Source: Escherichia coli
GTDB taxonomy: Bacteria; Pseudomonadota; Gammaproteobacteria; Enterobacterales; Enterobacteriaceae
Reading direction: 5' to 3' (one strand)
Assembly: GCF_009931435.1 (NCBI RefSeq)
Contig: NZ_CP043414.1
DNA length: 64,000 bases
Shown here: positions 46,153-53,624 of the stretch, piece by piece
How positions within the stretch are numbered: position 1 is the first letter of the stretch
Layout of the letters: every line of letters starts with the position of its first letter
Translations under genes and position numbers: made by a program
Notes under the pieces: generated by a model
What the model was told of the DNA's origin: nothing
Seen by the model: only the letters and a program-made list of their open reading frames with translations
Database searches by the model: none

Positions 46153-48618
<2,466 letters not shown>

Positions 48619-48634
48619 GTTCACTAAAAAATAG

Positions 48635-48663
48635 AACGGGGCCAAATCGGTCCCGTTTTTTTT
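48635..48663 (+). terminator. rho-independent terminator of glgP
   Basis: 9-bp stem AACGGGGCC/GGTCCCGTT (one G-U pair) with loop AAATC, followed by T8. Confidence 0.8.
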
Positions 48664-48712
48664 CGCCTTTATTTCGGAGAAGTGTCCAGAGGGGCAAGGG
48701 GATTCGGGGGAG

Positions 48713-48718
48713 TATAAT
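48713..48718 (+). promoter_or_regulatory. candidate -10 hexamer (TATAAT) for the glgP-glpD cluster
   Basis: Perfect TATAAT 18 bp upstream of the first ATG of cluster gene 1 and downstream of the glgP terminator; no good -35 seen. Confidence 0.35.
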
Positions 48719-48735
48719 TTCGCCATTCAGAAAGA

Positions 48736-50253
48736 ATGGAAAGAATAATGCAAAACAGAAAATGGATTTTGACCTCGCTGATAATGACTTTTTTCGGCAT
48801 CCCCATACTGGCGCAATTTTTGGCAGCGGTTATTGCCATGCTGGGGGCCGGGCTTGCCGCTATTCTTGAGGCTTGCAATTTACTCTTTACGCCAACAATT
48901 TATCTTCTACTCAACATCTTTATGCTGACGCTGGGGGCGATAATCCTATTTTTCTCTGGTCGCGTGTGGGCCGGTGATAGCGCACCAGAAAACAGAGAAA
49001 TAGCCGTCTGGCGGCAATGCTTTTTTCTTTTACCTGCACTGTTAACTCTGGTTGGCTGGATAATCACGCTACATCTGGCAGATTATCAACTTCGCCAGCT
49101 GGGAGCGGGTTGGTTGGCAAATCTTATGCTCCCCTGGCTGGGCGTATTGTTAGTCTCATTAGTCGGTGGTGAGTACTGGTGGATAGTCATTATTCCCGTT
49201 GGCGCGCATATCAGTTTTTCGCTGGGGTACGGCTGGCCAACCAGACATCCTTTAACCGGCACGTACGGGTTACGTTGCCGTAATTCCCTCCTGTTTATCC
49301 TTCTCATGCTGGTTTTTGTCGCTGGTTATCAGGCTTATTTATATAAACAGCTTAATCCTGGTGTTGGTGTACGCGAAAATATTGATACCTGGGCCTGGCG
49401 ACCCGATAAACTCAATAATCAACTGACGCCACTGCGTGGTAAACCGCAAATTCAGTTTACACAAAACTGGCCGCGACTCGATGGTGCTACGGCGGCGTAC
49501 CCAATTTATGCTTCTGCCTTTTATGCGTTGAGCGTTATACCGGAAGATTTCCACACCTGGGAATATCTGGAGAACTCTCGTACCCCCGATGCATATAACA
49601 GGATTGTTAAAGGTGATGCCGATATTATTTTTGTGGCGCAACCTTCCGGTGGGCAGAAAAAACGTGCAGAGGAATCGGGCGTCACTTTGAACTACACTCC
49701 TTTCGCCCGTGAAGCATTCGTTTTCATCGTCAATGCGGATAACCCGGTTAATTCCCTGACTGACCAACAGGTGCGTGACATCTTCAGTGGCGTAATTACC
49801 AACTGGCGTACTGTTGGCGGTAACGATCAGGAGATCCAGACCTGGCAACGCCCGGAAGACTCTGGCAGCCAGACAGTGATGCAATCGCAGGTCATGAAAA
49901 ATGTCCGCATGATCTCGCCGCAGGAAACCGAAGTGGCAAGCATGATGGAGGGAATGATTAAAGTTGTTGCCGAATACCGTAATACAAACAACTCAATAGG
50001 CTACACCTTCCGCTATTACGCAACACAAATGAACGCCGATAAAAATATAAAACTGCTAGCTATTAACGGTATTGCACCGACTGCGGAAAATATTCGTAAC
50101 GGCAAATATCCGTATATCGTCGATGCCTTTATGGTAACGCGGGAAAATACTACGTCAGAAACACAAAAACTGGTCGAATGGTTTTTAATGCCGCAGGGGC
50201 AGAGTCTGGTGGAAGATGTGGGCTATGTGCCGCTGTATCCAACAATGAAATAA
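48736..50253 (+). CDS. fusion protein: N-terminal polytopic membrane module (about 200 aa, 5-6 TM) plus C-terminal PstS-family (phosphate-binding-protein-like) domain
   Basis: 505-aa ORF (alternative ATG at 48748 has better SD spacing); hydrophobic N-terminus; C-terminal half is about 60% identical by eye to the next gene and carries PstS-like motifs (DIFSGVITNWRTVGG; RPEDSGSQTVM; IGYTFRYY). Confidence 0.7.
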   Translation: MERIMQNRKWILTSLIMTFFGIPILAQFLAAVIAMLGAGLAAILEACNLLFTPTIYLLLNIFMLTLGAIILFFSGRVWAGDSAPENREIAVWRQCFFLLPALLTLVGWIITLHLADYQLRQLGAGWLANLMLPWLGVLLVSLVGGEYWWIVIIPVGAHISFSLGYGWPTRHPLTGTYGLRCRNSLLFILLMLVFVAGYQAYLYKQLNPGVGVRENIDTWAWRPDKLNNQLTPLRGKPQIQFTQNWPRLDGATAAYPIYASAFYALSVIPEDFHTWEYLENSRTPDAYNRIVKGDADIIFVAQPSGGQKKRAEESGVTLNYTPFAREAFVFIVNADNPVNSLTDQQVRDIFSGVITNWRTVGGNDQEIQTWQRPEDSGSQTVMQSQVMKNVRMISPQETEVASMMEGMIKVVAEYRNTNNSIGYTFRYYATQMNADKNIKLLAINGIAPTAENIRNGKYPYIVDAFMVTRENTTSETQKLVEWFLMPQGQSLVEDVGYVPLYPTMK

Positions 50254-50278
50254 CGCTCGAGAGAAAGGAATCAGCGCA

Positions 50279-51271
50279 ATGAATAAATTCACCGGTGTTT
50301 TACTATTAGGTACGGCGTTACTGGCGGGATGTGTCGACCGGGAAGGGTACTATAACAGCGTCAGGGAAGAAGAGAGTCATGGACTGACGTCTCTGCGGGG
50401 GCAACCTGAATTACGTTACAGCGATGATTGGTCAAGATGGCCGAGAGTGTACGGCGCTACAGCCTTATACCCGCTGTATGCCTCCGCGTATTATGAATTA
50501 GTACCCGAGCCAAAAGATAAGGATCGAACCTCGCTGGCCTGGCAGGCGTATGGTTTGCAACAAACCCGAACAGCTGAAGCCTACGATAGTCTGATCAAGG
50601 GTACCGCGACGGTTATTTTTGTTGCACAACCGTCGGAAGGACAGAAAAAACGTGCAGAAGAAGCAGGCGTTAAACTGAAATATACCGCGTTTGCCCGCGA
50701 AGCCTTTGTCTTTATCGTTGATATCAAAAACCCGGTTAATTCACTTAGCGAACAGCAGGTCAAAGACATTTTTAGCGGTAAAGTGAGTCGCTGGAATAAA
50801 GTGGGCGGCGGTGACGAAAGTATAAAAGTCTGGCAGCGGCCAGAAGATTCTGGAAGCCAAACGGTTATGAAGGGACTGGTTATGCAAGATACTCCAATGC
50901 TGCCAGCCAAAAAATCCACTGTTATCGATCTTATGGGCGGTTTAATTACCGAAGTCGCCGACTACCAAAACACACCATCTTCCATTGGATACACCTTCCA
51001 CTATTACGTCACACGTATGAATGACAATATGCTCAAAATGCGCAAACAGATCAAACTGCTGGCTATAAATGGCGTTGCACCTACAGAGGAAAATATCCGT
51101 AACGGCACTTATCCGTACATAATTGATGCTTATATGGTGACGCACGAAAACCCTACGCTGGAAACGCAGAAATTCGTCGACTGGTTTTTAAGCCCGCAGG
51201 GACAGCAATTGGTAGAGGATGTGGGGTATGTGCCGATTCATGACGCATCATACGAATCATCAGTGCAATAA
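50279..51271 (+). CDS. PstS-family (phosphate-binding-protein-like) lipoprotein
   Basis: 330 aa; lipobox LLAGC after signal peptide; AAGGAA SD 8 nt upstream; motifs GATALYPLYASAY, DIFSGKVSRWNKVGG, RPEDSGSQTVM, IGYTFHYY align to E. coli PstS motifs (GAGATFPAPVYAKW, IYLGKIKKWDD, RRADGSGTSFVF, IGYVEYAY). Confidence 0.75.
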   Translation: MNKFTGVLLLGTALLAGCVDREGYYNSVREEESHGLTSLRGQPELRYSDDWSRWPRVYGATALYPLYASAYYELVPEPKDKDRTSLAWQAYGLQQTRTAEAYDSLIKGTATVIFVAQPSEGQKKRAEEAGVKLKYTAFAREAFVFIVDIKNPVNSLSEQQVKDIFSGKVSRWNKVGGGDESIKVWQRPEDSGSQTVMKGLVMQDTPMLPAKKSTVIDLMGGLITEVADYQNTPSSIGYTFHYYVTRMNDNMLKMRKQIKLLAINGVAPTEENIRNGTYPYIIDAYMVTHENPTLETQKFVDWFLSPQGQQLVEDVGYVPIHDASYESSVQ

Positions 51272-51873
51272 TGATGAATAAAATCAGACTTTATATTCCT
51301 CCGTTAATTCTTGGTTTTGTTATTGTGCCGTTGTTGGTGTGGCCGACGGTGGTTGCGCTGGCTGCTTCTGTTATCACGCTGAGTTTTCTGGGAGAGATAC
51401 TGTTCTCTATCCCGCTCATGATCAGGCATATTTCGCTTCTGCAATTACAACTATGGTTATCGGCTGAATATGCGCTTTTCTGCTGTGCAATGGTGGGCGT
51501 TGGTTGGCAATTTGCTCGTATAACTCAATCTGAATTGAAAAGCAGACTGCATTGTTGGCTGGTATTTGCACCAGTTTATTTCTGGTTGCTCCTGTGGAAT
51601 ATCATTTTCTATGTCGCGCCAGCGAATATTGCGTTGCTGGAGAATATGCGCAGTTTCTTTCTGACAGTTGTCTGGCTCCCACTAAATTTTTCACCATTTT
51701 GGTCCCAACCGTGGATTGACTTTGTCGGTCCAATAAGCGCACAGCTTGGTTTTGCGTTGGGATATTATTGCCAGTGGCGTAGCAAAAATAGAAGCCAGAT
51801 ACGGAAGTGGAGTGAGTGGGGAACGTGCCTGAGTTTTGTTACGTTGGGTATGATGGCGTGGGCTTTGCGGTAA
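51271..51873 (+). CDS. polytopic membrane protein, paralog of the N-terminal module of cluster gene 1
   Basis: 200 aa; ATG overlaps previous stop (TAATG); segment VGPISAQLGFALGYY resembles VGAHISFSLGYGW in gene 1. Confidence 0.65.
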   Translation: MMNKIRLYIPPLILGFVIVPLLVWPTVVALAASVITLSFLGEILFSIPLMIRHISLLQLQLWLSAEYALFCCAMVGVGWQFARITQSELKSRLHCWLVFAPVYFWLLLWNIIFYVAPANIALLENMRSFFLTVVWLPLNFSPFWSQPWIDFVGPISAQLGFALGYYCQWRSKNRSQIRKWSEWGTCLSFVTLGMMAWALR

Positions 51874-51923
51874 TTCCCTGACTCAAAAAGTAGGTCAGAT
51901 TGTTGACAAAGTGCACTTTGTTC

Positions 51924-52023
51924 ATGCCGGATGCGACATGAACGTCTTATTGGCCTACAAGACCATGCAAATTCAATATATTGCATAAGCCACGTAGGCC
52001 TGATAAGCGTAGCGCATCAGGCA
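51924..52023. repeat. REP pair (BIME) between the cluster and glpD
   Basis: GCCGGATGCGACATGAACGTCTTATTGGCCTAC and inverted GTAGGCCTGATAAGCGTAGCGCATCAGGCA, followed by TTTTTTGTTT. Confidence 0.75.
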
Positions 52024-52085
52024 GTTTTTTGTTTATCATCAGTCTCAGGTCAGATTGAAATCTGACCTGGCCACATTACGTTAAT

Positions 52086-53591
52086 TTACGACGCCAGAGA
52101 CAACCTCTGCTGCGTATACTCCCCCAGCCACTGACTCACACGAGATTGTTGATCCGCATTCAGCCACATGCCTTGTTTTGTGCGACGCCACAGGGCATCG
52201 TCGGCGCGGCGGACCCATTCGTGATCCACAAGGTATTTCAGCTCCGCTTCGTAGAACTCATGACCGAAATCTTCCCCGAGATCGCCTATCGCCCCCGCAT
52301 TGCCGAGCAGCAGTTCGCTGTTGCTGCCGTAAGTGCGCGCGTAGTGACGTGCCAGCGATTCAGTCAGGAACGGGTAACGGCGGCGCAGGCGGGCGGCATA
52401 ATCGTCGCGATCGCCTTCAATGGCACCACCCGGCAGCACGCTCTCTTTCGTCCACGCCGGGCCAATGCCCTGATAATACGGCGTCAGTTTTTCCAGCGCG
52501 TGCTCCGCCAGTTTGCGGTAGGTGGTCAGCTTACCGCCGAATACCGATAACAGCGGAGCTTTGCCGTTTTCATCATGGATATCAAGGGTGTAATCACGGG
52601 TAATGGCCTGCGGCGAATCAGATTCATCATCACACAGCGGACGCACACCGGAGTAGGTCCAGACGATATCGTCCCGGCTTAGCGGCTTTTTAAAGTGCGC
52701 GTTATACACTTTCAGCAGGTAATTGATTTCACTCTCTTCAATCTTCACCGCTTTCGGATCGCCTTTATACTCCACATCGGTGGTGCCGATAATGGAAAAC
52801 TCGTCCATCCACGGGATCACGAAGACAATACGTTTATCTTCGTTTTGCAGAATGTAGGCTTGCTTCTGGGTATGCACACGCGGCACGACAATATGGCTGC
52901 CTTTGATCAGGCGAATGCCATAAGGTGAGGGTAGATGCATCCCGTCGTCGAAGAACTGCTTCACCCACGGGCCGGTGGCGTTCACCAGACCGCGTGCCTG
53001 CCAGCTGTATTTTTTACCGGTATCAATATCTTCTGCTTCTACAATCCACAGGCCGTTTTCGCGGCGAGCAGAAGTGGCACGAGTACGGGTAAGCACTTCA
53101 CCGCCTTTACGCACCACCATCTGGGCGTTGGCGAGTACCAGACGGGCGTCGTCTACCCAACAGTCGGAATATTCGAATCCGCGCTTAATTTCCGGTTTTA
53201 ACACTGAATTTGTGCCAAAACGCAAACCGGTTGATCCCGGCAGGCTGGTGCGTTTACCCAGATGATCGTACATAAACAGACCAATACGGATCATCCACGC
53301 CGGACGCAGATGCGGGCGATGCGGCAGGCGAAAACGCATCGGGAAAGCGATATGGGGGGCCATTTTCAGCAACACTTCACGTTCAGCCAGCGCCTCGCTG
53401 ACCAGACGGAATTCATAGTGCTCAAGGTAGCGCAGGCCACCATGAATGAGTTTTGAACTGGCGGAAGAGGTCGCACAAGCGAGATCCTGCGCCTCCAGCA
53501 TCAGCACGGATAAACCGCGTCCAGCGGCGTCTGCCGCGATACCAGCACCATTGATGCCGCCACCTATCACAATCAGATCTTTGGTTTCCAT
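52086..53591 (-). CDS. glpD: aerobic glycerol-3-phosphate dehydrogenase GlpD
   Basis: ATG at 53591 (METKDLIVIGGGINGAGIA..., FAD motif); 501 aa; track ORF starts at an upstream GTG. Confidence 0.95.
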   Translation of the reverse strand: METKDLIVIGGGINGAGIAADAAGRGLSVLMLEAQDLACATSSASSKLIHGGLRYLEHYEFRLVSEALAEREVLLKMAPHIAFPMRFRLPHRPHLRPAWMIRIGLFMYDHLGKRTSLPGSTGLRFGTNSVLKPEIKRGFEYSDCWVDDARLVLANAQMVVRKGGEVLTRTRATSARRENGLWIVEAEDIDTGKKYSWQARGLVNATGPWVKQFFDDGMHLPSPYGIRLIKGSHIVVPRVHTQKQAYILQNEDKRIVFVIPWMDEFSIIGTTDVEYKGDPKAVKIEESEINYLLKVYNAHFKKPLSRDDIVWTYSGVRPLCDDESDSPQAITRDYTLDIHDENGKAPLLSVFGGKLTTYRKLAEHALEKLTPYYQGIGPAWTKESVLPGGAIEGDRDDYAARLRRRYPFLTESLARHYARTYGSNSELLLGNAGAIGDLGEDFGHEFYEAELKYLVDHEWVRRADDALWRRTKQGMWLNADQQSRVSQWLGEYTQQRLSLAS

Positions 53592-53624
53592 GCTGCCCTC
53601 ATTCACTTTCGTTAAAGCTCATAA

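Follow-up and report, generated by a model that had tools for sequence, protein, structure and literature searches.

In the Escherichia coli sequence analysed here (a stretch of 64 kb, referred to below as the window), an operon of three genes, at positions 48748-51873, is inserted between glgP and glpD. Does this operon depend on transcription arriving from glgP, or does it carry a promoter of its own and, if so, of what type? A preliminary description of the region had proposed a promoter of the second kind, with a perfect TATAAT and no recognisable -35 element, leaving the translation start ambiguous. We examined these proposals on the window itself and across 16 orthologous loci (from Escherichia, Klebsiella, Salmonella, Pseudocitrobacter, Phytobacter and others).

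The inserted operon and its relatives

The coding sequences concerned are the following, with gene 1 counted from the second of its two in-frame ATG codons (ATG2).

46171..48618, + strand: glgP (glycogen phosphorylase), an open reading frame (ORF) of 815 aa, so annotated in 99%-identical E. coli records
48748..50253, + strand: gene 1, 501 aa from ATG2, with a 6-helix membrane domain at the N-terminus joined to a PstS-like periplasmic binding domain (Pfam, AF2 model)
50279..51271, + strand: gene 2, 330 aa, PstS-like, with a lipoprotein-type signal LLAGC read from the translation (Pfam)
51271..51873, + strand: gene 3, 200 aa, a membrane protein and free-standing homologue of the gene 1 membrane domain (hhalign)

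Genes 1 and 2 both match the Pfam family PBP_like_2 (E = 3.3e-29 and E = 1.5e-29, respectively), gene 2 also matching phosphate-binding proteins of the PDB (E = 4e-16). Gene 2 and the C-terminal domain of gene 1 are paralogues, gene 2 being 58% identical to gene 1 residues 216-505 (E = 1e-123). Residues 1-208 of gene 1 form six long helices and one short helix in the AF2 model (pLDDT 85), and no solved structural relative of this 6-TM domain was found. Gene 3 aligns with the gene 1 membrane domain over 185 columns (hhalign probability 97.4%, E = 1e-11); it has no Pfam or NCBIfam match, and its named homologues are nearly all Escherichia proteins. The binding domains share with PstS the PBP_like_2 fold and, as judged by eye, R-x3-SGS and GAT motifs at the phosphate-binding positions. 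They differ from it in scoring 117.6 (gene 1) and 120.8 bits against TIGR02136, below the cut-off of 206.6 that marks the PstS family, in having no pstCAB-like ABC permease or ATPase gene between glgP and glpD, and in that one copy is fused to a 6-TM domain. The genes are tightly packed, with a gap of 25 nt containing an AAGGA Shine-Dalgarno (SD) sequence before gene 2 and a TAATG stop/start overlap between genes 2 and 3.

What K-12 carries as the pseudogene yzgL is intact in this operon, which is named O-island 133 (OI-133) in EDL933. K-12 shares with the window the site between glgP and glpD, the glgP terminator, the conserved upstream 14-mer described below, the TATAAT and the start codon, retaining the promoter and the first ~75 codons, but differs by a deletion of ~2.9 kb that begins near codon 75 of gene 1 and reaches the 3' end of gene 3. 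The full operon is found in 882 of 5426 complete E. coli genomes (about one sixth), and relatives of gene 1 occur in Salmonella, Klebsiella and related genera. The window allele shares only 91-93% identity with most E. coli alleles, and 99% with that of a goat isolate. The alternative downstream cassettes have no Pfam match at E <= 0.01. Array data place expression of the operon near background in EDL933. The gene downstream in the Salmonella version of the locus is, we presume, STM3527. Co-regulation of STM3527 with SPI-2 has been reported (PMC2639726), and deletion of OI-133 lowers type III secretion in EHEC (PMC3378721).

A probable promoter downstream of the glgP terminator

The elements found between glgP and gene 1 are, in order:

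48633..48663, + strand: intrinsic glgP terminator, a GC-rich hairpin followed by eight T (RNA fold)
48671..48684, + strand: candidate activator site ATTTCGGAGAAGTG, at about -54 to -41, with its centre near -49
48691..48694, + strand: G-run GGGG in place of a -35 hexamer (ortholog alignment)
48713..48718, + strand: putative -10 hexamer TATAAT, 6/6 to consensus (sequence, ortholog alignment)
48725, + strand: predicted transcription start, an A 7 nt past the hexamer (usual -10-to-start spacing)
48725..48747, + strand: predicted 5' UTR of 23 nt, containing ATG1 (48736-48738) and a weak SD/GGA (48738-48743)

The 3' element of glgP has the GC-rich hairpin and U-run (8 U) that define Rho-independent terminators. 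Its hairpin (48633-48659, 11 pairs) overlaps the run of eight T (48656-48663), and the fold is strong (-17.6 kcal/mol, z = -3.86), none of 200 shuffled sequences being equally stable. A stem and T-run also follow glgP at the Escherichia, Pseudocitrobacter, K. oxytoca and Phytobacter loci. A perfect TATAAT is indeed present on the + strand at 48713-48718, starting 49-50 nt beyond the T-run, in agreement with the distance of 50 bp first given for it.

This hexamer is not a chance match, as is indicated by its rarity, its placement and its conservation. TATAAT is depleted in the window, with four copies on both strands where 19.45 +/- 4.6 are expected from dinucleotide-preserving shuffles. Three of the four lie within or antisense to long ORFs, leaving the copy at 48713 as the sole intergenic one oriented toward a downstream gene. 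It is unchanged in all aligned Escherichia alleles, including divergent ones with a varying spacer, and is represented in other genera by TATACT, TACAAT or TATCAT. In all 16 orthologous loci, where protein identity falls to ~50%, the conserved start codon is preceded at 29-32 nt by a TATAAT-like hexamer. The hexamer travels with the operon and not with glgP, since it is kept at Salmonella loci that have other upstream genes (one is preceded by an Fe-alcohol dehydrogenase gene and another has an extra ORF intervening). Given the strong terminator upstream, the tight gene packing and a -10 position kept in 16 orthologous loci, the three-gene cluster very probably has its own promoter, as originally suggested. 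The searchable literature describes no promoter for the yzgL/OI-133 locus.

The hexamer is the only canonical part of this promoter. The best -35 candidate is GGGGCA (3/6) at a spacing of 16 bp, followed by AGGGGC (1/6) at 17 bp and GAGGGG (1/6) at 18 bp, which bears out the earlier statement that no TTGACA-like sequence is present; a canonical sigma-70 promoter would have at least 4/6 at 16-18 bp. The consensus promoter scan that we used requires at least 4/6 in the -35, and the site at 48713 is not in its list. The three bases preceding TATAAT are GAG, so that the TG at -15/-14 of an extended -10 is lacking as well. Among the 16 orthologues there is no -35 better than 3/6 at 16-18 bp spacing and no TGn extension; the absence of both is an ancestral, conserved property. 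In the place of the -35, four or more consecutive G follow the 14-mer by a few bases (at about -39 to -31) in 11 of 12 aligned orthologues; the exception is the K. oxytoca locus, with GGG only.

What is conserved instead is a 14-mer further upstream, which forms an information-content peak in the anchored alignment. Its family consensus is ATTTC[A/G]GAAAAGTG, with a core palindrome TTTC-N-GAAA. In 15 of the 16 promoters compared, the distance from its start to the -10 is 41-42 nt; in Superficieibacter it is 30 nt and not 42 nt. Six of nine non-Escherichia loci have at most 3/14 mismatches to the Escherichia 14-mer (each p <= 0.003), and the element is weak by gapless matching in the three Phytobacter-group loci. 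A PWM scan of the 64-kb window returned it as the sole strong match (21.5 bits, against 15.7 for the next) and no further copies. That C, G and TG are fixed within it points to specific recognition by a protein, in preference to a plain A-tract. The position of its centre near -49 counts against reading it as an activator site, being neither the classical class I nor the class II position. In the window allele the right arm of the palindrome is altered (GAGAA rather than GAAAA), and because of this, together with the missing upstream GGA of the leader (see below), the window copy may respond less well.

Several known regulators were compared with the 14-mer by means of their consensus sequences. 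By eye, it is not fitted by the Pho box, the MalT box or the sites of CRP, CpxR, PhoP, GlpR, sigma-54, sigma-E and sigma-32. The MarA/SoxS/Rob box and OmpR half-sites resemble it with the register off by one base. IHF fits at 7/9 positions, leaving the conserved A-run unexplained, and the CsgD box AAAAGNG, which we did not find in the searchable literature, matches only half of the 14-mer. The CodY box AATTTTCWGAAAATT of Firmicutes also resembles it by eye, and was ruled out because Enterobacteriaceae are without CodY.

The leader and the translation start

With transcription predicted to start at 48725, ATG1 (48736) would lie at +12 and ATG2 (48748) at +24. The corresponding start for K-12 yzgL is predicted at about NC_000913.3 3564028, on the minus strand; parts of the supplements of PMC4782308 (Cappable-seq), PMC3415461 (Kim 2012), PMC10301672 (ROSE in vitro), PMC4161252 (Conway 2014) and PMC9104697 (ChIP-exo) contain no mapped 5' end for this gene.

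The two ATG codons are in frame, and GGAAAG (48738-48743) ends 4 nt before ATG2, as previously noted; the idea of a nearly leaderless start at ATG1 is not supported, as ATG1 would have a leader of ~11 nt without an SD and would add residues that homologues lack. SD pairing is calculated at -3.3 kcal/mol for ATG2 against +0.2 for ATG1, homologue N-termini have the form M(K/Q)N.KW that begins at ATG2, the MERI extension from ATG1 has no counterpart outside Escherichia, and the curated K-12 yzgL CDS begins at ATG2. The translation start of gene 1 is thus ATG2 (48748) and not ATG1, which corrects database entries whose start is a non-canonical ATA codon or is placed too far upstream.

It remains improbable in our view, if somewhat less so than the lack of any promoter, that the promoter is real and translation begins at ATG1 on a very short leader, giving a protein of 505 aa. 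In favour of ATG1, no other in-frame ATG of the ORF comes before it, it is conserved in all Escherichia alleles, and in O157-type alleles AGGAAG directly precedes it. In the window allele, however, ATG1 has no SD pairing, an mRNA with the predicted leader of 11 nt would be neither leaderless nor properly led, and the comparison of N-termini points to ATG2. The conservation of ATG1 is itself accounted for, because this codon overlaps the GGA Shine-Dalgarno of ATG2.

Upstream of the start codon, 15 of 16 orthologues carry a GGA at a distance of 4-11 nt (10-11 nt in 11 of those), and 11 of 16 have a second GGA at -17 to -19. Both are present in 10 of 16; the window has the SD-proximal one only. 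Most orthologue leaders resemble the CsrA-repressed leaders of the glgCAP type in having two GGA 8-13 nt apart, one of them at or near the SD, the other often in a CA(A/G)GGAUGA context or in the loop of a small hairpin, and the yzgL/OI-133 locus adjoins the CsrA-controlled glg operon. The window allele differs from leaders of that type in its single GGA and weak hairpin (AUUC/GAAU, -0.4 kcal/mol, not significant). RNAalifold gave no consensus pairs for the leaders, and a stable hairpin sequestering ATG1 was dropped on account of these two folding results; an Rfam scan of 48500-48900 gave nothing near a gathering score. The paired GGAs suggest that a second, post-transcriptional layer of the CsrA type could act on these leaders, and that it would be weakened in the window allele.

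Possible modes of expression and known promoter types

Taken together, we think it probable that TATAAT is the -10 of a sigma-70-type operon promoter with a start near 48725, translation from ATG2 and an activator recruited by the 14-mer. The hexamer at 48713-48718 would serve as the -10 for the operon 48748-51873, transcription would most likely begin at about 48725 to give a leader of 23 nt, and gene 1 would be translated from ATG2 using the weak GGA Shine-Dalgarno at 48738-48740. The 14-mer at 48671-48684 would recruit RNA polymerase through a DNA-binding activator, and the operon would be nearly silent in ordinary laboratory culture until some signal switches it on. Of the two promoter types first proposed, activator-dependent or extended, the extended one fails for want of TGn, and the activator is favoured by indirect indications: no -35 and no TG, a conserved 14-mer with fixed G and C positions, and near-background signals on the EDL933 arrays. 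Dependence on an activator is inferred from these indications, and the term "activator-dependent" may be too strong, since some basal transcription can come from a consensus -10 by itself.

The same perfect -10 could belong to a real but weak constitutive promoter, in which the alpha C-terminal domain contacts an A/T-rich tract resembling an UP element, the 14-mer being that tract. The proximal UP subsite has the consensus AAAAAARNR, which AGAAAAGTG within the 14-mer fits at 8/9 positions, and there is a T-rich stretch between the terminator and the 14-mer. We nevertheless regard this as unlikely, as the element is displaced upstream by ~3 nt relative to the canonical proximal subsite (-46 to -38), its conserved C, G and TG would not be needed by a pure A-tract, its TTTC-N-GAAA palindrome suggests a dimeric protein, and expression in EDL933 is at background. 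That there is no functional promoter at all, the operon being silent or transcribed by glgP read-through and TATAAT being a chance match or a relic, seems very improbable: it would have to be reconciled with the strong glgP terminator, with a hexamer position kept in 16 loci across genera, some of them not preceded by glgP, with the local depletion of TATAAT, and with an upstream motif conserved at fixed spacing.

If the 14-mer does recruit an activator, the preferred reading could be carried further, though here we are speculating and would not expect it to hold in full: TTTC-N-GAAA..GTG would be the operator of an uncharacterised activator found throughout the Enterobacteriaceae which, along with CsrA-type control of the leader, switches on a widespread envelope system. 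Such a system would join a membrane domain that has no solved structural relative with tethered PstS-like binding domains, and might feed into virulence regulation, given the links of OI-133 to type III secretion and of STM3527 to SPI-2. Whatever the regulator, a regulatory region is now defined for an operon that is intact in about one sixth of complete E. coli genomes. Its cross-genus footprint (14-mer, G-run, -10 and paired GGA) offers precise targets for mutagenesis and a bait for the regulator, and as K-12 retains the promoter ahead of the yzgL remnant, the search for that regulator is possible in a standard laboratory strain.

The promoter type itself is of an ordinary, known kind, sigma-70 promoters without a -35 being a common design. 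Extended -10 promoters (TGnTATAAT) likewise work without a -35, but carry TG at -15/-14 where the window has GAG and where TG is missing in the 15 other orthologues. Activator-dependent promoters of this design include those of the Pho regulon, in which the Pho box replaces the -35 (e.g. pstS), and those controlled by MalT (malP, malE/malK). They share with the present promoter a good -10, a missing -35 and a conserved upstream element, protein binding to the latter being only a candidate property here. PhoB and MalT were the obvious suspects because of the PstS-like products and the glycogen-gene neighbourhood. The Pho box is an 18-bp sequence, CTGTCATAWAWCTGTCAY, located ~10 bp upstream of the -10. 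The corresponding region here, -40 to -23 (48685-48702), is G-rich and unconserved and contains no Pho box, with one half-site-like GTGTCCA and 0/7 matches in the second repeat, so that by this consensus the promoter is not of the PhoB-dependent type. The MalT box is GGGGA(T/G)GAGG near -37.5, accompanied by upstream repeats. Only the GGGG of this decamer is kept across genera, the GGA(T/G)GA core being present in Phytobacter only, and by this consensus the promoter does not belong to the MalT-dependent class. The conserved element of the yzgL/OI-133 promoter differs from both boxes in sequence and in its more upstream position (-54 to -41).

The three-gene operon and its variable interval

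Three tightly packed genes fill the interval between glgP and glpD, the features of the locus being the following:

glgP, end at 48618; gene upstream of the promoter
Conserved upstream element (the 14-mer), 48671-48684; window sequence ATTTCGGAGAAGTG
Gene 1, 48748-50253; N-terminal membrane domain and C-terminal PBP_like_2 (PstS-like) domain
Gene 2, 50279-51271; PstS-like protein bearing an LLAGC signal of lipoprotein type
Gene 3, 51271-51873; 200-aa membrane protein
glpD, 52086-53606, minus strand; convergent with the three-gene cluster

The PBP_like_2 match of gene 1 has an E-value of 3.3e-29 (Pfam), and its score against TIGR02136 (117.6 bits) lies under the cut-off of 206.6. Gene 2 shares 58% identity with the C-terminal domain of gene 1, and its stop overlaps the ATG of gene 3 (TAATG). 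Gene 3 gave no family match, nor did BLAST detect similarity between it and the gene 1 membrane domain (48748-49380), but profile-profile comparison finds the two homologous (hhalign 97.4%, E = 1e-11, 185 columns). As genes 2 and 3 are homologous to the domains of gene 1, the operon consists of a membrane module and a PstS-like binding module present twice, fused in gene 1 and split over genes 2 and 3. The AlphaFold model of the membrane domain (pLDDT 85, pTM 0.83) has six long helices and one short one, and no relative was found among solved structures.

The window's glgP shares 95-99% identity with its counterpart in almost every complete E. coli genome, which makes the window E. coli, broadly defined. 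Of 5426 complete E. coli genomes, 882 carry all three genes; other strains retain gene 1 followed by other cassettes. The glgP-glpD interval is a hotspot of variation (loci L004 4209-6297, L085 5064-5609, L086 5019-7672 and L090 1-5152). In B2 strains such as ATCC 25922, the promoter and the greater part of gene 1 have given way to a fimbrial operon, and a 3' remnant of the gene persists. The small genes found 3' of gene 1 in other E. coli are annotated as YbbD family or hypothetical proteins; in Salmonella and Klebsiella the interval holds genes of YbbD-head and DUF4279-like type, or a second paralogue of gene 1. There is a mild contrast in G+C content between the cluster (44-49% over 48700-51900) and glgP and glpD (50-56%), which fits an acquired or fast-evolving insert. 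The K-12 pseudogene yzgL results from a deletion of ~2.9 kb between short similar sequences (window ~48965 and ~51818; 425-706 of the K-12 locus, L005), with ends reading ..CGAGT-ATGGG.. in OkiPb01717-type gene 1 and ..TGAGT-GGGG.. near the gene 3 end; promoter and start codon were spared. By eye, the spacer between gene 3 and glpD (51880-52075) resembles REP/BIME-type palindromic units, e.g. GCCGGATGCGACATGAACGTCTTATTGGCCTAC and GTAGGCCTGATAAGCGTAGCGCATCAGGC, and 3' of these lies a putative hairpin (about 52047-52072) that is the probable glpD terminator.

A probable promoter of the operon

The preliminary description proposed that the cluster has its own promoter, with a perfect TATAAT (48713-48718) and no recognisable -35. 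Both elements hold: the hexamer starts 49-50 nt past the T-run of the glgP terminator, and the best that can be found at the -35 place is GGGGCA (3/6) at 16 bp, AGGGGC (1/6) at 17 bp and GAGGGG (1/6) at 18 bp. A consensus promoter scan passed over the site solely on account of its -35 threshold of at least 4/6. The terminator hairpin (48633-48659, overlapping the eight-T run 48656-48663) is strong (-17.6 kcal/mol, z = -3.86), none of 200 shuffles being equally stable. Counting both strands, the window holds just 4 copies of TATAAT versus 19.45 +/- 4.6 expected (dinucleotide-preserving shuffles; 100/100 higher), the other three copies lying inside or antisense to long ORFs. This depletion is consistent with selection against spurious -10 elements, and the promoter hexamer is not a trivial chance event.

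We addressed the promoter question by comparing 16 orthologous loci. Across Escherichia, divergent alleles from E. coli lineages, E. albertii, E. whittamii and further species have an invariant TATAAT, the spacer 5' of it being variable. In the loci from Pseudocitrobacter, Klebsiella, Salmonella, Phytobacter, Superficieibacter and two other Enterobacteriaceae, the gene 1 product shares about 48-54% identity with that of the window and most intergenic DNA is unalignable. Every locus nevertheless has TATAAT, TATACT, TACAAT or TATCAT 29-32 nt before the conserved start codon, and across the 16 promoters no -35 candidate exceeds 3/6. Since the arrangement persists in Salmonella loci with an iron-type alcohol dehydrogenase upstream, or with an extra ORF after glgP, the hexamer goes with the operon rather than with glgP. 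When the strength of the terminator and the packing of the operon are also considered, the best reading of the sequences is that the three genes have their own promoter.

A conserved upstream element

When the sequences are aligned by their -10, another conserved block appears, ATTTC(A/G)GAAAAGTG. The first base of the 14-mer lies 41-42 nt 5' of the hexamer in 15/16 loci (30 nt in Superficieibacter), its distance to the terminator being variable. Outside Escherichia, six of nine loci differ from the Escherichia 14-mer at no more than 3 positions, a fit equalled in 0-6 of 2000 shuffles, and five of these six matches stand at the expected distance from the -10; under this gapless comparison the match is weak in the three Phytobacter-group loci. 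At the core is the palindrome TTTC-N-GAAA, whose centre falls near -49 and which comes with conserved C, G and TG positions. A few bases 3' of the 14-mer, at the -35 place, at least four Gs follow in 11/12 aligned orthologues (GGG only in K. oxytoca). A weight matrix of the 14-mer has one strong match in the 64-kb window, the 48671-48684 site (21.5 bits; second best 15.7). In the window allele the right arm of the palindrome has A replaced by G (GAGAA versus GAAAA in other Escherichia alleles).

This is the footprint expected of an activator binding site at a promoter without a -35, and the 14-mer is a putative site of this kind, although comparison with the Pho, MalT, CRP and MarA boxes gave no fit. 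The activator dependence suggested earlier is probable, its main support being the conserved 14-mer; the main alternative to an activator site is an UP-element-like role for the 14-mer. The extended -10 arrangement that had also been considered does not hold, as GAG directly precedes the hexamer and TGn is found in 0/16 orthologous promoters. As a type, the promoter is ordinary; the novelty lies in the conserved upstream element as candidate control of a widespread three-gene operon.

The gene adjoining glpD in the homologous Salmonella cluster is presumably STM3527, going by LT2 gene order. STM3527 groups with genes co-regulated with SPI-2 (PMC2639726), inducing Cpx alters yzgL, the K-12 remnant, by -2.0-fold (PMC2731931), and OI-133 deletion lowers type III secretion in EHEC (PMC3378721). 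These thin expression data are compatible with a regulated, normally quiet promoter.

Start codon and leader

Two in-frame ATGs are indeed present, at 48736 and 48748, with GGAAAG 4 nt upstream of the second. The near-leaderless start envisaged at the first is not borne out: it lacks Shine-Dalgarno pairing (+0.2 kcal/mol), and its MERI extension is found only in Escherichia. The ATG at 48748 pairs through GGA 48738-48740 (-3.3 kcal/mol, 7-nt spacing; glgP is comparable at -4.3), homologues from other genera begin at its position (M(K/Q)N.KW), and the curated K-12 CDS starts there; on these grounds we take it to be the start of gene 1. In strain R32_14_1F, which is 99% identical, RefSeq/PGAP begins gene 1 one codon earlier, at ATA (L001 1684-1689; window equivalent 48745). 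Only O157-type alleles have ATG at this codon (AATGATG versus AATAATG in the window), so the ATA looks like an artefact of start propagation, the true start probably being the next codon, equivalent to 48748. In some Salmonella entries (517 aa) the annotated start even lies 5' of the promoter.

From the usual -10 spacing, transcription would start at A 48725, placing the two ATGs at +12 and +24; counted from this predicted start, the leader is short (about 23 nt) and not leaderless. The orthologue leaders hold 27 GGA in total versus about 5.6 expected: one lies 17-19 nt before the AUG in 11/16, and a second, 4-11 nt before it, at or near the Shine-Dalgarno sequence in 15/16. The window leader lacks the upstream GGA (AGAAA versus AGGAA in O157-type alleles) and its hairpin is insignificant; no consensus structure was predicted among the orthologue leaders. 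Given the GAGAA arm and the missing upstream GGA, regulation of the window allele may be looser or weaker. Several of the leader GGA occur in CA(A/G)GGAUGA contexts or small loops, which resemble CsrA sites, and CsrA-like control of the leader is offered as a lead only.
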